A DNA stretch of 55,202 nucleotides from a bacterium (GCA_021158595.1 JAGGUF010000072.1:1-55202); one strand, 5' to 3'; shown: positions 4,360-53,534, numbered from the stretch's first letter. The notes: generated from the sequence alone by a model not told the origin. A program made the numbers and translations.

Positions 4360-4488
4360 CCCCTCCCCCCTCCTTAATCCTCCCCCTCCCTGTGGGAGGG
4401 GGAGGATATAGGTGGGGGAGGGATTTCCCGCTCCACGCTCCACGCTTCAGGTAATTCTCAAACCCCTACCAAGTGGTTGGCAATTACA
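4360..4488. repeat. Hairpin-core repeat with extended flank (CACGCTTCAGG ... GGCAATTACA)
   Basis: Core 4360-4422: CCCCTCCCCCCTCCTTAATCCTCCCCCTCCC-TGTG-GGAGGGGGAGGATATAGGTGGGGGAGGG. The flank matches the reverse complement of 38248-38326. Confidence 0.85.
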
Positions 4489-7914: not shown

Positions 7915-9615
7915 ATGAAGGGAGGTTTCAATTTTTCAGCAATACCAAGTCCCTCTACTCTTAAAATCATTCCCCTTGGAGGTCTGGATGAAATAGGGAA
8001 AAACATGACCCTCTTTGAATATGGAGGAAAGATTTTAATTGTTGATATGGGTTTGCAATTCCCTGATACGAAAATGCCTGGCATTGACTACATTATTCCT
8101 AATGTCTCTTATCTTCAAGGGAAAGAGGAAAACATTTTAGGGGTTATTTTTACTCATGGTCACTATGACCATATCGGCGCTATTCCTTATCTTATCCAAA
8201 AGATAGGAAATCCTCCTCTATTTGCCACTCCCCTAACCAAAGGAATCATTTTAAAACGTCAGGAAGATTTCCCTTCAGCGCTAAAACTCAATCTACATCA
8301 GATAAAAAGGGAAGATGAAATTTCTCTTCCTCCTTTTATTATCAAAACCTTTCCCCAAAATCATAACATTCCTGACAATATTGGGCTTTTAATCAAAACT
8401 CCTGTAGGAAATATTCTGCATACTGGTGATTTTAAATTTGACCTTACTCCTATTGCTGACAATCCTACCAATATTTCAAAGATAGCGAACCTCTGTCAGG
8501 AAGGAATTTTACTTTTGATGTCTGATTCTACCAATGCCGAGGTGCCGGGATTTAGTCTTTCTGAAAAAAATATCCAAGAAAATCTTGAAAAAATCTTTGA
8601 GAAAGCAAAAGGAAGAATCATTGCTGCTACATTTGCCTCTCTACTCTCTCGAATTCAAGAATTGATTAACCTGGCGGAGAAATTTAGAAGAAAGGTTATT
8701 ATCGAAGGCTATTCTATGAAATCTGATGTAGAAATTGGGGTTAAACTGGGATATATTAAGATAAAAAAAGACACATTAATTACCCCAAGAGAACTTCGCC
8801 ATCTTCCCGACAGAAAGATTTTAATCATCTGCACAGGCTCTCAGGGTGAGGGAGATGCAGTTTTAATGAAACTTTCACATAAGGAACATCCATTTATTTC
8901 TATTAAAAAGGGAGACTCTGTCATTCTCTCTTCTTCTGTAGTTCCTGGAAATGAGAGATCAGTTCAGGAGTTAAAAGATCTTTTGTCTTATCAGGGAGCA
9001 AGAATCTTTCACTCTCAAATGATGGACATTCATGCTACCGGTCATGCTCAAAGAGAGGAACTAAAAATGATGATAAACATTGCCAAGCCTAAATTTTTTA
9101 TGCCTATCCATGGCAGTCGTTATATGCGAGAAATTCATAAAGAGATTGCCTTAGATCTAAAAATTCCGGAAAAAAATATTATCATCGCCCAAAATGGGAG
9201 TATAATTGAATTGAGGAAAGACAGCATAAAGATTAGAAAAGAAAGAGTGCCAGCAGGTTATGTAATGGTTGATGGTCTCGGTGTAGGAGATGTGGGAGAG
9301 GTGGTGCTTCGCGACAGACAAATGATGGCTCAGGACGGAATGTTTGTAATCGTGGTAATAGTTGATGCCTCAACTGGCAAGGTGGCTCAGAGTCCTGATA
9401 TTATCTCTCGAGGATTTGTTTATCTTCGAGAATCAAAACAACTCCTGCGAGAGGTAAGAAAGAGGGTAATAAGACTGGTAGAAAAAATAACCGTCTCAAA
9501 ATATCCTGCAAACTTTACCTTTGTGAAAAATAAAATTAGAGAAGACTTAGGAGAGTTTCTCTTTAAAAAAACCTCAAGAAGACCAATGATATTACCTGTA
9601 GTGATAGAAGTCTAA
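7915..9615 (+). CDS. rnj: Ribonuclease J (MBL/beta-CASP)
   Basis: 566 aa; LKIIPLGGLDEIGKNMT start, HxHxDH motif (FTHGHYDHIG), beta-CASP and C-terminal domain length typical of RNase J. Confidence 0.85.
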   Translation: MKGGFNFSAIPSPSTLKIIPLGGLDEIGKNMTLFEYGGKILIVDMGLQFPDTKMPGIDYIIPNVSYLQGKEENILGVIFTHGHYDHIGAIPYLIQKIGNPPLFATPLTKGIILKRQEDFPSALKLNLHQIKREDEISLPPFIIKTFPQNHNIPDNIGLLIKTPVGNILHTGDFKFDLTPIADNPTNISKIANLCQEGILLLMSDSTNAEVPGFSLSEKNIQENLEKIFEKAKGRIIAATFASLLSRIQELINLAEKFRRKVIIEGYSMKSDVEIGVKLGYIKIKKDTLITPRELRHLPDRKILIICTGSQGEGDAVLMKLSHKEHPFISIKKGDSVILSSSVVPGNERSVQELKDLLSYQGARIFHSQMMDIHATGHAQREELKMMINIAKPKFFMPIHGSRYMREIHKEIALDLKIPEKNIIIAQNGSIIELRKDSIKIRKERVPAGYVMVDGLGVGDVGEVVLRDRQMMAQDGMFVIVVIVDASTGKVAQSPDIISRGFVYLRESKQLLREVRKRVIRLVEKITVSKYPANFTFVKNKIREDLGEFLFKKTSRRPMILPVVIEV

Positions 9616-9628
9616 ATTTCTAAAATCA

Positions 9629-9657
9629 TTGACTACTTAATCTCAGGTTGCTATAAT
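9629..9657 (+). promoter_or_regulatory. Near-consensus sigma70 promoter with extended -10, upstream of the rpsF operon
   Basis: TTGACT (9629-9634), 17-nt spacer, TGcTATAAT (-10 at 9652-9657). Transcription would run through the whole repeat element at 9676-9983. Confidence 0.55.
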
Positions 9658-9675
9658 GCTTTTTAATCAAATATG

Positions 9676-9983
9676 TGTACAGTTTCACCACATTGTTTAC
9701 AATACTTTTTACAATAATAAGGAATTTCCTCCCCTTCCTTAATCCTCCCCCTCCCTCTGGGAGGAGGAAGAAATTGAGGAGATCCTCCTTAATCCTCCCC
9801 CTCCCTTTGGGAGCGGCGAGGATATAGATGGGTTTCCTTTCAAATCCTCCCCCTCCCTTTGGGAGGGGGAGGAGATAGGTGGGGGAGGGAAAAATAAAAA
9901 TAAATATAGGAAAAGGCAAAAGTCAAATACAAAGATTAAAGAGAAATTTGTCCTAATTGTGAACAACGTGGTGAAACTTTACA
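9676..9983. mobile_element. MITE-like non-coding element: 28-bp terminal inverted repeats enclosing three tandem hairpin cores
   Basis: Left end TGTACAGTTTCACCACATTGTTTACAAT (9676-9703). Reverse complement of the right end is TGTAAAGTTTCACCACGTTGTTCACAAT (9956-9983); 25/28 identical. The interior holds three core units (9738-9898). No ORF with coding character. Confidence 0.7.
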
Positions 9984-9986
9984 AAT

Positions 9987-10385
9987 ATGGTTCAATACGA
10001 ATTATCTTTTCTCATTCCCAATTTACAGGAAAAAGAAAGAGAGAAGATCTTAAAAGAAATAGAAGAGAAGATTAAAAGTCTCCAAGGAAAACTTGAAGAA
10101 AGTTTTATTGAAAAGAAAATCTTTGCTTATCCAGTAAAAAAGTACCAAGAAGGATTCTTAGGAGTTTTTGCCTTCTCGCTTGAAAGCGATAGAATAAAAG
10201 AATTTCAGAATTTTTTAAGATCAAACCAAAAGATCTTAAGAGAAATCATAGAAAGAAAGAAGCCCTCACCCTTGCTGAAACGAGTCGCTAAAGAAAAAAA
10301 GGTGGTTCTTGCCAAAAAACCTGTTAAAAAACAGAAGGTGAAAATAGAAAAATTGGATGAAAAATTAAAAGAAATTTTAAGGTAA
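9987..10385 (+). CDS. rpsF: 30S ribosomal protein S6
   Basis: YELSFLIPN start; rpsF-ssb-rpsR gene order. Confidence 0.85.
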   Translation: MVQYELSFLIPNLQEKEREKILKEIEEKIKSLQGKLEESFIEKKIFAYPVKKYQEGFLGVFAFSLESDRIKEFQNFLRSNQKILREIIERKKPSPLLKRVAKEKKVVLAKKPVKKQKVKIEKLDEKLKEILR

Positions 10386-10390
10386 AAAAT

Positions 10391-10855
10391 ATGTATCTAA
10401 ATAAGATATTCATTTTAGGACATCTTACTCAGGATCCCCAAATAAGAAACCTACCATCCGGACAACTGGTAGCCAGTTTTGGGGTGGCTACTAATCGATT
10501 CTTTTATGATAAAAACAGACAGAAACAAAAACAGACCGAATTCCATAATATTGTTGCCTTCAACAGATGGGCTGAAATTGCTCAGCAATATTTAAGACAG
10601 GGTTCGATGGTTTTAATCGAAGGAAGGCTGCAAACCAGAAACTGGGAAGATAAAAATGGGGTCAAAAGATTTCGAACAGAAATTATTGTAGAAAACCTTC
10701 AACTTGGACCCAAGGCTCCGGTCTCTGTTCAAGAAGAAAAAGAAAACAAAGAAAAGACCAGTTTTCCTTCTTCAGAAAAAGAAAAAAAAGATGAGAAAGA
10801 AGAAATTCCTACTATTGAAGAAGAAGAAATAAATGTAAAAGATCTACCATTGTAG
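10391..10855 (+). CDS. ssb: Single-stranded DNA-binding protein
   Basis: OB-fold block LNKIFILGHLTQDPQIRNLPSG...FHNIVAF...LIEGRLQTRNWEDKNG and an acidic C-terminal tail. Confidence 0.9.
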   Translation: MYLNKIFILGHLTQDPQIRNLPSGQLVASFGVATNRFFYDKNRQKQKQTEFHNIVAFNRWAEIAQQYLRQGSMVLIEGRLQTRNWEDKNGVKRFRTEIIVENLQLGPKAPVSVQEEKENKEKTSFPSSEKEKKDEKEEIPTIEEEEINVKDLPL

Positions 10856-10864
10856 AAGAAGATT

Positions 10865-11056
10865 ATGTGTTATTTTTGCCAGCGGAACATCAAACAGATT
10901 GATTGGAGAAATGCAAAACTTCTCTCACGCTATCTTTCAGCCTCTGGGAAGATTAAACCCAGAAAAAAAACTGGGGTTTGTGCTAAACATCAACGGCAAT
11001 TAAAAAAAGCCATCAAAAAAGCACGAGAGATGGCTCTTTTACCTTATACAATGTAA
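10865..11056 (+). CDS. rpsR: 30S ribosomal protein S18
   Basis: CYFC...IDWRNAKLLSRYLSASGKIKPRKKTGVCAKHQRQLKKAIKKAREMALLPY. Confidence 0.9.
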   Translation: MCYFCQRNIKQIDWRNAKLLSRYLSASGKIKPRKKTGVCAKHQRQLKKAIKKAREMALLPYTM

Positions 11057-12696: not shown

Positions 12697-13416
12697 CTAT
12701 TTTACAAATCTGTCCAGATCGCCCTCCAAAACCTTTTCCAAATTGGAGGTTTTAATATTTCTTCTATGATCTCTTACCATTTGATAGGGATGAAAAATAT
12801 AGGATCTGATCTGATTACCCCATTCAGCAATAGGAATAGTTCCCAGTTGGCTTTTAATCTTTTTTTCCTTCTCTTGCTGTTGTCTCTGAAGAAGTTTTGC
12901 CTGAAGAATTCTAAGAGCCTTTTTCTTATTCTCACCCTGAAGTCTTTCTGATTGACAAGAAACAGTAATACCCGTAGGAAGATGGGTAAGGCGAACCTTA
13001 CTCTCTCGACGATTAACATACTGACCTCCGGGACCTGAGGCTCTTAGGGTTTCAATTTTTAAATCTTCTTCTTTTATTTTCACCTTATCCTCTTTTATAT
13101 CTGGCAAAACCTCTACCAAGGCAAAACTGGTATGTCTCAGTCTTTTGGCTGAAAATGGTGAAATTCGAACCAATCTATGAACTCCATTCTCTCCTTTTAA
13201 AAGGCCGAATGCTCCCTTTCCCTTCACCTCCATTGTTATTGACTTTATTCCTCCCTCGCCATTGACCCTTGAAATCTCTTTTACCTTAAAATTCTTCTTT
13301 TGAAAGTATCTTTTATACATCCGCAGAAGGATTGACACCCAGTCCTCAGCATCCTTTCCTCCAGTACCAGCATAAATTGAGAAAATGGCATTTCCTTCAT
13401 CGTACTCACTTTTCAT
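12697..13416 (-). CDS. prfB: Peptide chain release factor 2 lacking the N-terminal domain 1
   Basis: SPF tripeptide (RISPFSAKRLRHTSF) and GGQ (RASGPGGQYVNRRES). MKSEYDEGNAIFSIYAGTGGKDAEDW aligns with E. coli RF2 from about residue 117. The ORF residues upstream of this Met overlap the tRNA-Thr gene. Confidence 0.8.
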   Translation of the reverse strand: MKSEYDEGNAIFSIYAGTGGKDAEDWVSILLRMYKRYFQKKNFKVKEISRVNGEGGIKSITMEVKGKGAFGLLKGENGVHRLVRISPFSAKRLRHTSFALVEVLPDIKEDKVKIKEEDLKIETLRASGPGGQYVNRRESKVRLTHLPTGITVSCQSERLQGENKKKALRILQAKLLQRQQQEKEKKIKSQLGTIPIAEWGNQIRSYIFHPYQMVRDHRRNIKTSNLEKVLEGDLDRFVK

Positions 13417-13458
13417 ACTTCTTCTTTTTATCAAAAAAAATAAGGTTTTGCAACCAGA

Positions 13459-13530
13459 AGCCGAGGAGAGGACTCGAACCTCCAACCTACGGTTTACGAT
13501 ACCGCTGCTCTACCATTGAGCTACCTCGGC
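13459..13530 (-). tRNA. tRNA-Thr (anticodon CGU)
   Basis: Minus-strand cloverleaf: acceptor GCCGAGG/CCTCGGC, D arm GCTC/GAGC, anticodon arm GCGGT-ATCGTAA-ACCGT, T arm GGAGG-TTCGAGT-CCTCT. Confidence 0.9.
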
Positions 13531-21906: not shown

Positions 21907-21927
21907 AGATTCTTATATGTGAGGTTT

Positions 21928-21996
21928 CCCTCCCCCACCTATATCCTCCCTCTCCCAGAGGGAGGGGGAGGATTAAGGAGGGGGTGAAACTGTACA
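21928..21996. repeat. Hairpin-core repeat (opposite orientation) plus partial terminal repeat
   Basis: CCCTCCCCCACCTATATCCTCCCTCTCCC-AGAG-GGAGGGGGAGGATTAAGGAGGGG, then GGTGAAACTGTACA (reverse complement of the 9676 terminal repeat start). Ends 1 nt before the stop codon of the 21998 gene. Confidence 0.8.
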
Positions 21997-21997
21997 G

Positions 21998-36755: not shown

Positions 36756-36910
36756 TAAAGTTTCAGCACATTTAACCCCTCTTTGTATTCCTCCCCTTAA
36801 AAAGGGGGAGGAAATTGAGGTGTGGTATTCTCCTAAAAGAGAAAATAAGGACCCTCTCCAAATCCTCCCCCTCTCTCTGGGAGAGGAGGATTAAGGTGGG
36901 GGAGGAAAAG
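36756..36910. repeat. Repeat cluster: partial terminal repeat plus two Y/R hairpins
   Basis: TAAAGTTTCAGCACATTT (36756-36773) resembles the 9676 terminal repeat. Hairpins: CCTCCCC-TTAAAAA-GGGGAGG (36790-36811) and AATCCTCCCCCTCTC-TCT-GGGAGAGGAGGATT (36861-36892). Lies upstream of rpsT. Confidence 0.7.
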
Positions 36911-38247: not shown

Positions 38248-38470
38248 TGTAATTGCCCACATCTTGATAAGGATCTGGGATTGCCTGAAGCGTGAAACGC
38301 AAATTTCCAAAATTAAATCTCAAATTCCCCCACCTATATCCTCCCCCTTCCAGAGGGAGGGGGAGGATTAAGGAGGGGATCCTAAATCCCAAACGTTTGG
38401 AATTTGGAATTTCGTTCGCCCAGCCCTACTTTTGGAACAAAAGTGGGGCTGGGTTTCGGATTTCTCCCCC
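38248..38470. repeat. Composite repeat: GGCAATTACA/CACGCTTCAGG flank (inverted), hairpin core, AT-rich units, GGGGCTGGG hairpin
   Basis: Core 38327-38378: CCCCCACCTATATCCTCCCCCTTCC-AGAG-GGAGGGGGAGGATTAAGGAGGGG. Hairpin 38419-38453: CCCAGCCCTACTTTTG-GAAC-AAAAGTGGGGCTGGG. Fills the holA/acyP convergent spacer. Confidence 0.85.
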
Positions 38471-41268: not shown

Positions 41269-41571
41269 TTAATACTTGCTTTTGTATTGTTTTAATTCTC
41301 TTTGAAGTAGATCCTTTGCCTCATTAATAGCCAAATAAATATCATCTCTTTTTGCCTCCACTCTTATAAGTTTTTTAGGTAAAACCATATTCACTTCTGC
41401 CCGGAAGATTTTTCCTTTTCTGTGATGTCGAGTTGTTTTTTCTATTTCCACATAAACCTCCGGAGGAAATTTGGTATTAATAAACTTCTGACAACTGCCA
41501 ATCTTGTCTCTGATATAATCTTTGAGGTTTCTGGTTAAAGTGATATTAGTACCTTTAATATTTATTGTCAT
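41269..41571 (-). CDS. hpf: Ribosome hibernation factor (short HPF/RaiA)
   Basis: 100 aa; IKGTNITLTRNLKDYIRDKI...AEVNM...IYLAINEAKDLLQRELKQYK pattern. Confidence 0.8.
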   Translation of the reverse strand: MTINIKGTNITLTRNLKDYIRDKIGSCQKFINTKFPPEVYVEIEKTTRHHRKGKIFRAEVNMVLPKKLIRVEAKRDDIYLAINEAKDLLQRELKQYKSKY

Positions 41572-41614
41572 ATAAATCTCAAAATTACAATCTAAAATGC
41601 AAAATAAAACAAAT

Positions 41615-41863
41615 CTTAAATGTTAGATGTCAAATCTCAAATCCATATGTCAAATCTCAAATCTAAATACAGTAAAGAAAAATCCGAAATTCTAAATCCT
41701 AATGTTTCAAATTTTAAACGTTTGGGATTTCGGATTTCCCTTCCCCTCCTTAATCCTCCCCCTCCCTCTGGGAGGGGGAGGATATAGGTGGGGGAGGGAA
41801 AATCCCAAATCCTAAATTCTAAACGTTTGAGATTTGGAACAAAAGTGGGGCTGGGTTTCGGAT
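41615..41863. repeat. Composite repeat: tandem ATGTCAAATCTCAAATC units, hairpin core, AT-rich units, half GGGGCTGGG module
   Basis: 17-nt direct repeat at 41627-41643 and 41647-41663. Core 41738-41798: CCCTTCCCCTCCTTAATCCTCCCCCTCCC-TCTG-GGAGGGGGAGGATATAGGTGGGGGAGGG. GGAACAAAAGTGGGGCTGGGTTTCGGAT at 41836-41863. Confidence 0.85.
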
Positions 41864-41944
41864 GGGCAGGTTGATTATCAAAGTGGTTAGATACTACATT
41901 TTAGCAAACAATAAGCCTTTAGTAAACTCAAGGATCCTTCTGAT

Positions 41945-41980
41945 AAAAAACCAGCACCAATATATTGGTGCTGGTTTTTT
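41945..41980. terminator. Bidirectional intrinsic terminator
   Basis: AAAAAACCAGCACCAATATATTGGTGCTGGTTTTTT: perfect stem CCAGCACCAATA/TATTGGTGCTGG (12 bp; 14 bp counting the flanking A-T pairs) flanked by an A-run and a T-run. Confidence 0.75.
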
Positions 41981-41994
41981 AAGACAAAGAATCC

Positions 41995-42075
41995 TTATCT
42001 TTTCTTTCTTTTTCTTGAACTCTTTTTCTTTGTGCTCTTACTTTTCTTTGTCTTTCTTGTTTTCTTTTTAGCCAT
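41995..42075 (-). CDS. Candidate 26-aa highly basic micro-protein
   Basis: ATG GCT AAA AAG ... AGA TAA gives MAKKKTRKTKKSKSTKKKSSRKRKKR. The strong terminator begins ~15 nt after the stop. Below the ORF-track length cut-off. Confidence 0.3.
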   Translation of the reverse strand: MAKKKTRKTKKSKSTKKKSSRKRKKR

Positions 42076-42185
42076 TTTTCTGCCTGCCCTAATCAGCAGG
42101 TTTTTTTAGAAGCAGTAAATAGTCGGCCTCCACTATTTACTTTTATAGATTATAAACTTTTAAAGAACCAAATGCAATATTTATT

Positions 42186-43145
42186 TTAAAAAATTATTAT
42201 CTCTTCTTCAAGTTGAATACCAAACTTATCTCTTACTTTCTGTTTTATTAAACTTATCAGAATCATTACATCCTCTGCTGTCGCTTTTCCCGTATTTATA
42301 ATAAAGTTTGAATGCTTTTTAGAAATTTGGGCTCCTCCAATTTTTTTTTCTTTTAGACCACAACTATCTATAAGATAAGCAGCAGGTATTTCTTTTCGGT
42401 TCTGAAACTGTTTCAAATCAGGAAATTTCTCTAATAAGGAAGGACGGCAACGGGAAAATGGGATGTTTTTAAATATGCTTCCTATGGAAGGATATTCCAG
42501 AGGCTGATGAACTTTTCGATAAAGAAGATTTTCTTTTATTTTGCTCTCTATTCTACTTTTTTTCTCCTTTTTAAGTTCCAACTCTACTTCAACAATTATA
42601 TAACTTTTATTATTCTTAAACAAGGAACTTCGATAAGAAAATTGACAATCTTCATTACTAAAGGTTTTAGTTTCTAATCCATTTTTTGAAACCTTCAGAA
42701 TCTTTACCTTCTTCACTATATCTTTGACCTCTTTTCCAAAAGCACCAGCATTATTACATACCGCTCCTCCAATAGTTCCTGGAATTCCAACCATCCACTC
42801 AAGACCAGTTAACGATTCTTTCAAAGAAAACTGAACCAGCCGCTCTAATCGCGTTCCCGCACCAGCATAAAGAGTTTCAAATTTTAAGTTGTTATTTGTG
42901 TGTCTAATATAGGATATTGCACACCTTATTACCAATTCCTTACACTCTTTGGCTAAAAATAAAATGTTACTTCCTCCTCCTAAAACAAAAAATGGAATAT
43001 CTTTTTTATAGGACCAATTTATTGCCTCAATCAATTGAGAAATATTTCTCACTTCTACAAAATACCTTGCCTTGCCTCCTATCCGGAAAGTAGAGTAATC
43101 TTTTAAAAGAACATTTTTTTTAATTTCTATTTTTCCATTTTTCAT
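42186..43145 (-). CDS. murB: UDP-N-acetylenolpyruvoylglucosamine reductase
   Basis: FAD-binding TFRIGGKARYF, GGGSNIL, and C-terminal GGAQISKKHSNFIIN block. Confidence 0.9.
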   Translation of the reverse strand: MKNGKIEIKKNVLLKDYSTFRIGGKARYFVEVRNISQLIEAINWSYKKDIPFFVLGGGSNILFLAKECKELVIRCAISYIRHTNNNLKFETLYAGAGTRLERLVQFSLKESLTGLEWMVGIPGTIGGAVCNNAGAFGKEVKDIVKKVKILKVSKNGLETKTFSNEDCQFSYRSSLFKNNKSYIIVEVELELKKEKKSRIESKIKENLLYRKVHQPLEYPSIGSIFKNIPFSRCRPSLLEKFPDLKQFQNRKEIPAAYLIDSCGLKEKKIGGAQISKKHSNFIINTGKATAEDVMILISLIKQKVRDKFGIQLEEEIIIF

Positions 43146-46397: not shown

Positions 46398-46496
46398 CCC
46401 CACCTATATCCTCAAGGGAGGATTAAAGAGGAAAAGAGATTCCTTTTATTGTAATTATTGTAAAAAGTATTGTAAACAATAGGGTGAAAGTTTACA
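46398..46496. repeat. Degenerate repeat copy with one intact terminal repeat (atpD/atpC spacer)
   Basis: Core remnant CCCCACCTATATCCTC-AAG-GGAGGATTAAAGAGG. The reverse complement of 46469-46496 is TGTAAACTTTCACCCTATTGTTTACAAT, about 24/28 identical to 9676-9703. Ends 1 nt before the atpD stop codon. Confidence 0.75.
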
Positions 46497-46497
46497 A

Positions 46498-48149
<1,652 letters not shown>

Positions 48150-48201
48150 GATTTAATCTAGTATGGTTTGAGGATTTTCCTCCTCTTCTCCTTTTGATTT
48201 A

Positions 48202-49145: not shown

Positions 49146-49353
49146 AACCAATAAGGTTATATCCAAGATGAAAGTTGACACCTTTTTACCATCTTACATA
49201 TTATGGACAAAACTGGAAATATTTCCAATGTTTTTAATAATCCCTCCCCCTCCTTAATCCTCCCCCTCCCTTTGGGAGGGGGAGGATATAGGTGGGAGAG
49301 GGAAATCTTCCTCTATTAACTGTTAACTTTTATTTTGCATTCAACCAATAAGG
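49146..49353. repeat. Repeat copy flanked by 11-bp direct repeats (atpA/atpG spacer)
   Basis: AACCAATAAGG at 49146-49156 and 49343-49353. Core 49242-49302: CCCTCCCCCTCCTTAATCCTCCCCCTCCC-TTTG-GGAGGGGGAGGATATAGGTGGGAGAGGG. Confidence 0.75.
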
Positions 49354-52832: not shown

Positions 52833-52944
52833 ATAATAGATATAAAGAAGTTTTTGTTCTTATTTTAGAGATTAAAAATCTCAATACCTTGTATTATTCT
52901 TTCTGCTAAAAATTATATACCTTTTTACCTATCTCTGTCAAGAT

Positions 52945-53053
52945 CCCTCCCTCACCTCTCTCCTCCCCCTTCCCAGAGGGAGGAGGATTGGGGAGGATCT
53001 CCTCAGTTATCCTCCCCCTCCCTTTGGGAGGGGGAGGACTAAGGAGGGGTGGG
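52945..53053. repeat. Two adjacent hairpin-core repeats upstream of the atp operon
   Basis: 52945-52996: CCCTCCCTCACCTCTCTCCTCCCCCTTCCC-AGAG-GGAGGAGGATTGGGGAGG. 53009-53053: ATCCTCCCCCTCCC-TTTG-GGAGGGGGAGGACTAAGGAGGGGTGGG. Confidence 0.85.
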
Positions 53054-53137
53054 AGAATATCAGATCTTACCAAACTCTTTATTTAGCCAATGGATGATCT
53101 TTAACTGTACCCTATGTACCCGACGAGTTCTACCCCC

Positions 53138-53166
53138 TTGACAAGATTTTGGTGATATGCTATAAT
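53138..53166 (+). promoter_or_regulatory. Perfect consensus sigma70 promoter with extended -10
   Basis: TTGACA (53138-53143), 17-nt spacer, TGcTATAAT (-10 at 53161-53166). Confidence 0.7.
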
Positions 53167-53170
53167 GTAG

Positions 53171-53534
53171 ACGGAAAAATAAAGGAGGCTTTGAAAATTA
53201 AAGCGTATGGGCCAGATTGACCTCGCTCCTTAAGATTTAAGAGCAGGGTCGGTCAGCCCTCGCTATTATTAGTAATGAGTGCCTCCCAGCCCCACCTTTT
53301 GGCTGAAGATTTTAGCCAAAAGTGGGGCTGGGTGCACTCCTTACTAAAGGAGTAATAGCACTTTTACAAAGGCACTCAAAGGGGAAGGAGAGAATAATTC
53401 TCTGTGGCCAAGGATTGCTTATCAATATACAAAATGGTAAGTAATCCTCGGCCACAGAGATTTGCAATTTCAGTGATTCAATGACGAAAAAAAATGGGCC
53501 AATAAAAATAAAAGTTAGGAGGTGAAAAGAAAAA
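53171..53534 (+). ncRNA. Candidate structured RNA / long 5' leader
   Basis: No credible ORF. Three long hairpins: H1 53209-53259 (with G-U pairs that only work on the + strand), H2 53271-53345 (contains the GGGGCTGGG repeat hairpin 53285-53332), H3 53399-53460. Confidence 0.4.
53399..53460 (+). promoter_or_regulatory. Long hairpin following a conserved AGCAC box (unit 1)
   Basis: TCTCTGTGGCC/GGCCACAGAGA plus AGGATT/AATCCT. The loop contains TTATCAAT...TGGTA. Box AGCACTTTTACAAAGGCACTCAAAGGGGAAGGAGA at 53357-53391. Confidence 0.55.

Follow-up and report, generated by a model that had tools for sequence, protein, structure and literature searches.

A probable IS481-type miniature element forming most of the rpsF-ssb-rpsR leader in a bacterium of the Parcubacteria group

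The stretch JAGGUF010000072.1:1-55202 of assembly GCA_021158595.1 (55,202 nt, G+C 35%; called the window below, meaning the whole stretch) carries the operon rpsF-ssb-rpsR, which encodes ribosomal protein S6, SSB and ribosomal protein S18 (9987-11056, plus strand). S6 homologues place the host in the Parcubacteria/Paceibacterota group. The operon is preceded by the RNase J gene, rnj, and the spacer between rnj and rpsF measures 371 nt. Almost the entire untranslated leader of this essential operon is made up of a 308-bp non-coding element with inverted ends, which is very likely a miniature inverted-repeat transposable element (MITE) derived from an insertion sequence (IS) of the IS481 type. 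An insertion in such a position is a known kind of event. Loci outside the window are referred to by L numbers.

The rnj-rpsF spacer

The following features were found at the locus.

7915-9615: RNase J gene rnj (Pfam), directly upstream of the rpsF spacer
9629-9657, plus strand: sigma-70-type promoter TTGACT-N17-TGcTATAAT, chromosomal and outside the element
9670-9675: left copy of the duplication, AATATG, directly outside the left end
9676-9983, plus strand: the element, a probable non-autonomous MITE of 308 bp, no coding capacity
9676-9703, plus strand: left terminal inverted repeat TGTACAGTTTCACCACATTGTTTACAAT, equivalent to the transposase-upstream end of the IS
9704-9727, plus strand: left subterminal arm ACTTTTTACAATAATAAGGAATTT
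9728-9889, plus strand: three hairpin units, GC-rich, belonging to a dispersed family of intergenic palindromes
9744-9770, 9794-9820, 9846-9872: inner hairpins, with outer arms at 9725-9739 and 9877-9891
9890-9955, plus strand: right subterminal arm
9956-9983, minus strand: right terminal inverted repeat (reverse complement TGTAAAGTTTCACCACGTTGTTCACAAT)
9984-9989: right copy of the duplication, AATATG, directly outside the right end, holding the rpsF start codon (9987-9989)
9987-10385, plus strand: rpsF (S6; Pfam Ribosomal_S6)
10391-10855, plus strand: ssb (Pfam SSB)
10865-11056, plus strand: rpsR (S18; Pfam Ribosomal_S18)

A first-pass annotation of this DNA had described a near-consensus promoter firing into a 308-bp element with 28-bp inverted ends and three tandem hairpin cores, ending 3 nt before the rpsF ATG, with no transposase in the window. 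This description is borne out in all its parts. The promoter agrees with the consensus at 11/12 positions and has the upstream TG. The terminal repeats are identical at 25 of 28 positions, a match that none of 100 shuffled sequences reached, and a repeat finder lengthens the inverted repeat to 33 nt (9671-9703 / 9956-9988). The hairpin units start at 9741, 9791 and 9843, with a spacing of 50-52 nt and a degenerate middle unit; Tandem Repeats Finder did not call them as an array. The element stops at 9983 and the ATG starts at 9987, which leaves the gap of 3 nt. No part of the window matched the transposase of the partner IS described below in a tblastn search, and the open reading frames (ORFs) called inside 9676-9983 are translations of the hairpin repeats. 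Small size, inverted ends and the lack of a transposase gene are all expected of a MITE.

Directly outside both ends of the element stands the hexamer AATATG, identical at 6/6 positions; the empirical chance of such a direct repeat at a fixed spacing in the window is 7.7e-4. The first-pass annotation had proposed to look for a target-site duplication and had overlooked this one. The right copy supplies the start codon of rpsF, and the ATG of the left copy opens a 14-codon upstream ORF. This ORF was dropped as a candidate, as the codon reads AAG in the sister lineage introduced below. We also rejected an 8-bp duplication, CAAATATG, since it occurs in the window only, its 'CA' belongs to the terminal repeat and the other copies fit 6 bp.

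When the element and one copy of the duplication are taken out, the reconstruction reads TGCTATAAT-GCTTTTTAATCAAAT-ATG, in which the start codon lies 15 nt past the -10 box, without a Shine-Dalgarno sequence. The sequence expected for an empty allele is TATAATGCTTTTTAATCAAATATGGTT. Such a site suits this genome. A Shine-Dalgarno motif is missing at most of the 51 gene starts examined in the window, which include 3474, 17802, 12689, 14903 and 34099 (minus strand). Several genes of the window have an extended -10 box, TGnTAnAAT, just 6-8 nt ahead of the start codon, and for this reason we propose that leaderless or near-leaderless mRNAs may be widespread in this genome.

A partner insertion sequence and further copies

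A search for the terminal repeat in metagenome contigs gave 21 loci, and an exact-match search of GTDB genomes gave just three, a number that yields no copy number for the lineage. Next to the terminus TGTAAAGTTTCACCTCTTTGTTAACAAT comes the 3' end of a gene reading into it; this holds for L026, L027, L032 and L037 and for L016, a locus of the genome search. In L037 the IS end abuts AATATG. The autonomous partner with the same ends that the first-pass annotation had called for was thereby found in related metagenomes, where L027 holds a complete IS (931-1985, 1055 bp) with one ORF of 314 amino acids (aa) matching Pfam rve and rve_3. NCBIfam IS481 (NF033577) is by far the best match of this ORF (189.2 bits, E 1.1e-55, 273/284 profile positions) and the next-best family is IS3 with 44 bits; since the curated IS481 cut-off stands at 224 bits, we call the partner only IS481-like, and it would represent a divergent branch and not a certified member of IS481.

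The left and right ends of the window element are matched at 24/28 and 25/28 positions by the L027 IS and at 22/28 and 24/28 by the L047 IS, so that element and IS share their termini as expected of a MITE and an IS able to mobilise it. The 6-bp duplication around the L027 IS, CATATT, is the reverse complement of AATATG. The L046 IS (1058 bp) is flanked by AGTAAT (6/6). In the L047 and L050 ISs (both 1054 bp) the transposase-upstream end carries TGTACAG and the opposite end TGTAAAG, which is the same asymmetry as in the window element. A single rve-type ORF, a length of 1054-1058 bp, TGTA...TACA ends and 6-bp duplications together give the build of an IS481-type IS. In the IS copies the transposase stop codon lies within the terminal motif. 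At E <= 1e-20 the transposase has at least 195 homologues, most of them on contigs that measure about 1.05-1.4 kb and hardly exceed the IS in length, as is expected of a multicopy element. One NCBI homologue is named Patescibacteria. A search of the accessible literature on MITEs or IS481 elements of the candidate phyla radiation (CPR) or Patescibacteria, and on the palindrome sequence, returned no account of this IS branch or its MITEs and nothing else of relevance. The sequences suggest that an IS481-like family and its miniature derivatives are spread across Patescibacteria. An IS resident in the host itself would be expected to end in TGTACAGTTTCACC....

Further copies of the element were searched for in the window with a profile built from 17 termini. 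Three partial or degenerate copies were found.

46410-46496, minus strand: left terminal repeat, left arm and a degenerate hairpin (terminus 46469-46496, E 2.5e-5); begins right after the stop codon of an ATP-synthase beta-type gene
21925-21997, minus strand: first 14 nt of the terminal repeat (21983-21996, E 0.04) and one hairpin unit; begins right after a stop codon
36753-36950, plus strand: degenerate copy upstream of rpsT (S20), made of hairpins, the remnant of a terminal repeat and a tail resembling the right arm; the right terminal repeat is missing

The first-pass annotation had listed partial terminal repeats at 21983-21996, 36756-36773 and 46469-46496. All three are real, the one near rpsT being weak when taken alone (36756-36772, E 1.2) and backed by the adjacent similarity to the right arm. 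The similarity of the copies also reaches beyond the 28-nt ends. The left subterminal arm is common to the partial copy (46454-46489, 94% over 36 nt) and to a complete small copy in L020, and the right arm with its terminal repeat is 89% identical over 82 nt to L015/L024. The release-factor-like protein encoded at that locus is just 49% identical to its counterpart in the window (12697-13485), and we therefore conclude that the family has moved between distant lineages. In agreement with the expectation that full-length copies should exist, complete small elements occur at unrelated loci in other genomes. The L020 copy contains two hairpins and is flanked by AATAGG (6/6), which includes the stop codon of the neighbouring gene. 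The L019/L033 copy is about 100 nt long with a duplication of 5/6 (L019). The L035/L017 copy of 129 nt encloses a different GC-rich hairpin and is not flanked by a duplication. The L038 copy, about 350 nt long, ends 4 nt before the ATG of a putative, unconfirmed ORF running off the contig end. Like the rpsF element, these copies usually begin right at a stop or start codon, and such codon edges are probably where insertions survive in genomes as compact as these.

The first-pass annotation had recommended a comparison of the rnj-rpsF spacer among relatives to find filled and empty sites. The only close relative found is a sister lineage with an S6 of 89% identity (L007, L008/L034, L009, L010); over 10.7 kb it is collinear with the window, at about 85-86% identity, and here the site is filled. 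At the orthologous position it has the same promoter, with one spacer base different, as well as both ends and both arms. The number of hairpin units differs, with one in L007, two in L008 and three in the window. In distant relatives (S6 46-60% identical) the rpsF leader is free of the element, as in L011, L039 and L043, and rpsF lies 15-48 nt past ychF; these leaders are not strict empty alleles. The element-free L042 (S6 57%) has a promoter of the same build upstream of rpsF, TTGACG-17-TGCTATAAT, followed by a 39-nt AT-rich leader (...TTAATCAATAACCCAATATG) that ends in AATATG. This leader is similar to the reconstructed empty site, but L042 is too remote a relative for it to serve as the empty allele.

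On this basis we propose that a DDE transposase supplied in trans inserted the element into an AATATG that held the rpsF start codon. At that time rpsF would have started about 15 nt past the -10 box, behind the kind of very short leader without a Shine-Dalgarno sequence that is typical of this genome. The insertion would have duplicated 6 bp, the right copy still serving as start codon and the left copy being stranded upstream. It would be older than the split from the sister lineage, and the number of hairpin units would have changed afterwards to one, two or three. A mobile origin, as suggested in the first-pass annotation, is supported by the duplication, the autonomous partner, the complete copies elsewhere and the element-free distant relatives. 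That annotation had also stated which finding would count against such an origin, namely that every relative carries this sequence, with compensatory changes, and that no copies exist at other sites; this is not what the comparison gave.

Assembly at this locus deserves mention. Seven contigs with an identical S6 are on record, and the six that were examined (L001-L006) all end inside the rpsF leader, from which we conclude that the repeat breaks assemblies. L001, from the same species, connects at least six hairpin units with window sequence from the 49.2-kb region, and its gene calls include a spurious one of 141 aa across the array. We did not use this structure, as it is probably a mis-join through the repeat. 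The repeat thus both breaks metagenomic assemblies at the locus and spawns false ORF calls.

The leader transcript and the status of the element

The leader RNA is predicted to fold at -153 kcal/mol (z = -10.4) with its two ends paired, in line with the earlier suggestion of a 28-bp stem beside the start codon. Read from the sequence, this end helix of about 28 bp has 26/28 pairs, including one G-U pair, and the ends are predicted to pair in the window and in the sister lineage alike. The energy needed to open the region from -18 to +12 around the AUG was computed for four RNAs.

Full leader: 24.6 kcal/mol
Reconstructed empty site: 2.1 kcal/mol
Transcript from about 9710, without the left end: 6.8 kcal/mol
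RNA cut within the helix: 6.5 kcal/mol

In this model the paired ends would strongly mask a start site that has no Shine-Dalgarno sequence. As the operon is essential, the block must be relieved, and processing of the transcript or an internal start is probably needed for expression.

The promoter at 9629-9657, which is the only strong one, would transcribe through the element. We infer this because no convincing promoter facing rpsF was seen by reading in the right arm, where a scan gives weak candidates only. The weak candidates in the scan are the left end, in which the terminal repeat doubles as a promoter of the form TGTACA-N16-TACAAT (9/12 positions), and an antisense TTGACT-18-TATTTT at 9926-9897. 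After transcription the end helix would close over the hairpins and reach the AUG, raising the opening cost from about 2 to about 25 kcal/mol. We favour the possibility that a double-strand-specific RNase cuts the helix, as happens with Correia elements, which would restore a short leader. The second choice is that some transcripts start within the left end, at TGTACA-16-TACAAT, and would then lack the helix. In vivo formation of the helix, transcription through the element, processing and an effect on expression are all deduced from the model.

In its way of working the window element may be most like the Correia elements (CREE/NEMIS) of Neisseria and other co-transcribed MITEs. In Correia elements RNase III acts on the paired ends, and promoter elements can also be present in the ends (PMC2649163, PMC10969869). 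Both elements are small, non-coding and gene-adjacent, their terminal inverted repeats measure about 26-28 nt, and both are co-transcribed with the neighbouring genes, the window element by prediction. The duplication made by Correia elements is TA. The window element differs in its 6-bp duplication, its greater length of 308 bp, its identifiable IS481-type autonomous relative and its interior, where GC-rich palindromes that are also found free in the genome form an array of variable length; moreover, its host is a member of the Parcubacteria with a Shine-Dalgarno-poor genome, and its helix and the cleavage of that helix are predicted. With IS481 the family shares, through its partner, a length of about 1.05 kb, a single rve-type DDE ORF of about 314 aa, TG...CA ends and 6-bp duplications; the differences are the missing transposase in the window element and the sub-threshold score of the partner. 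The pneumococcal RUP is a MITE derived from IS630-Spn1, intergenic, with terminal repeats that match a resident IS by which it is presumably mobilised in trans (PMC3049150). The window element is likewise a non-autonomous bacterial element with IS-matching terminal repeats; RUP has no internal variable hairpin array, and the window partner has been seen in other genomes only. RUP comes from a different IS family. The interior units resemble REP/BIME sequences in being short, imperfect intergenic palindromes that occur in both orientations, singly or in short arrays. They differ in that they are homopurine/homopyrimidine and lie between IS-type ends, and no RAYT-type transposase was seen.

Taken as a whole, the account of a MITE origin is very likely to be correct, and read-through, helix formation and processing are the mechanism that we propose to have followed. 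Every feature tested for a MITE was found (size without coding capacity, inverted ends, duplication, further copies and ends shared with an IS) apart from an allele of a close relative that is empty in the strict sense, and several points weigh against the account. The nearest element-free rpsF leaders belong to organisms with an S6 of only 46-60% identity, and most of these relatives differ in synteny, having ychF-rpsF. In the sister lineage the left flank has decayed to AAAAAG, which leaves a duplication of 4/6, and at other sites the duplication is missing or unclear (L035, L047, L050, L038), the IS copies L047 and L050 having flanks without a clean duplication. Within the 55-kb window there is only one complete copy of the element, and a search of the window did not find the partner IS in the organism itself. 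The transposase lies under the curated cut-off, at 189 versus 224 bits. On the side of expression, helix, processing and the start of transcription are all predicted, and a signature motif of RNase III was not found in the 55-kb window. Concerning the first of the duplications, the decay suggests that the copy without function was lost in the sister lineage and the copy holding the start codon was kept.

It is possible, if doubtful, that the element has since been co-opted and is now a selected regulatory leader of rpsF-ssb-rpsR. Such an exaptation is compatible with the MITE origin and competes only with the reading of the element as a tolerated passenger. The helix at the 5' end could guard the mRNA against the 5' exonuclease RNase J, whose gene stands just ahead of the operon, or regulated cleavage could set the output of S6, SSB and S18. 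The element has been kept in both lineages ahead of essential genes, and about 10 nt separate the predicted transcript start from its helix. In a comparison of the window with L008, the left arm with its terminal repeat agrees at 49/52 positions, the right arm with its terminal repeat at 83/88 and the promoter segment at 57/60. The arms are 94% identical as against 77% for two other spacers (binomial p = 3e-8); for comparison, third codon positions of conserved residues reach 70-82%, tRNAs 94-95% and RNase P RNA 91%. However, the conserved patch, at about 9486-10142, also covers 130 nt at the end of rnj and 130 nt at the start of rpsF, where it rises to 98.7% with synonymous sites included. 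Because the patch runs into both flanking genes, the conservation cannot be credited to the element, and a recent recombination tract between the lineages explains it at least as well as selection. We therefore rejected selection on the arms as proof of co-option, although the signal itself is real. Compensatory changes in the helix were rejected as well, as the differences are few and those present are non-compensatory, each lineage having its own mismatch in the right terminal repeat. Conservation is lowest in the hairpin segment (84%, with unit-sized indels and a variable number of units), and the upstream ORF is not conserved. In a sliding window, no other stretch of the 10.7-kb alignment with L008 is as conserved as 9486-10142 (94-99% versus a mean of 87%).

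A more far-reaching version is unlikely. It holds that the element is domesticated, in a genome of largely leaderless style without Shine-Dalgarno sequences, as a leader whose helix gates translation and/or decay by RNase J or RNase III, that the number of palindromes tunes the output from strain to strain and that the palindromes are a new self-propagating class of CPR repeat.

There is very little probability left for an explanation without transposition, in which the 28-nt motif is a Patescibacteria promoter or operator (TGTACA-N16-TACAAT) and two such sites happen to stand around independent palindromes. The motif does score 9/12 as a weak promoter and often lies at gene boundaries, and hairpin units exist without it at about 10 other spacers. 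Against this, it forms inverted pairs at the fixed ends of transposase units of 1054-1058 bp with 6-bp duplications outside, the copies also have the subterminal arms past the 28 nt in common, and in other genomes the inverted pairs enclose unrelated hairpins (L035, L019). Least probable of all is a dedicated, locus-specific leader, for example for S6:S18 autoregulation, with a helix that mimics transposon ends: a leader that binds S6:S18 does precede rpsF in other bacteria, and the position before rpsF, the strong structure and the conservation in the sister lineage would fit, but the same 28-nt ends bound transposase-coding ISs and small elements at unrelated loci elsewhere, a 6-bp duplication flanks the element, distant relatives have no such leader and no Rfam leader family matches. 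At the gathering thresholds no Rfam family matched anywhere in the window, and at E <= 5 the leader gave only generic hairpin (miRNA-type) matches far under the cut-offs. A known ribosomal-protein leader or other bacterial RNA family was rejected for this reason, no model being near its threshold.

CPR bacteria have tiny, compact genomes and are hard to culture, and little is known of their mobile DNA or their gene regulation. To this the locus adds an insertion exactly on the start codon of an essential gene, its persistence through a lineage split and a variable palindrome array of a kind that fills most spacers. Because a Shine-Dalgarno sequence is absent from most genes of the window, the predicted 28-bp helix beside the start codon amounts to a natural experiment on initiation versus structure.

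Dispersed palindromes and other observations in the window

The first-pass annotation took the terminal repeat to be the terminus of a repeat family and not part of a locus-specific leader. This reading stands for the ends; the hairpin cores, in contrast, belong to a larger family that also occurs without terminal repeats. Its unit is a nested palindrome of about 60 nt, CCCTCCCCnCTCC-TTAAT-CCTCCCCCTCCC-TnTG-GGAGGGGGAGG-ATAT-AGGTGGGGGAGGG, found in about 11 spacers of the window at the following sites.

13-73
4361-4423
9725-9891 (the rpsF leader)
21925-21984
36853-36905
38326-38382
41735-41800
47986-48095
49242-49305
52941-53056

The palindromes stand in both orientations, singly or two to three in a row, are strictly intergenic, mostly lack transposon ends and fill most of the longer spacers of the window. 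Among the loci examined they are abundant only in the window lineage and its sister. The units are homopurine/homopyrimidine (CCTCCCCCTCCC / GGGAGGGGGAGG), and G runs on the purine strand could form G-quadruplexes. Many palindromes have AT-rich, short-period, low-complexity repeats beside them (201-251, 41572-41700, 47851-47990, 48100-48160). Examples are TGTTAGAA, which is repeated, and variants of AAATCTCAAAT/TAAATTCTAAAT. Similar repeats, TTGCATATTGCATATT, occur beside the L027 IS.

Two other loci of the window were noted in passing. TTGACA-17-TGCTATAAT forms a consensus promoter at 53138-53166, and behind it lie about 300 nt of non-coding DNA up to 53460, with two long, near-perfect hairpins (about 53279-53341 and about 53400-53459). 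No Rfam family came near its threshold for 53138-53460, and this stretch may be an unannotated structured RNA. In the 614-nt spacer 41571-42186, beside terminator-like hairpins, a small ORF on the minus strand (41990-42075), read by eye, would encode the very basic peptide MAKKKTRKTKKSKSTKKKSSRKRKKR, which could be a small ribosomal-type protein or the product of chance.

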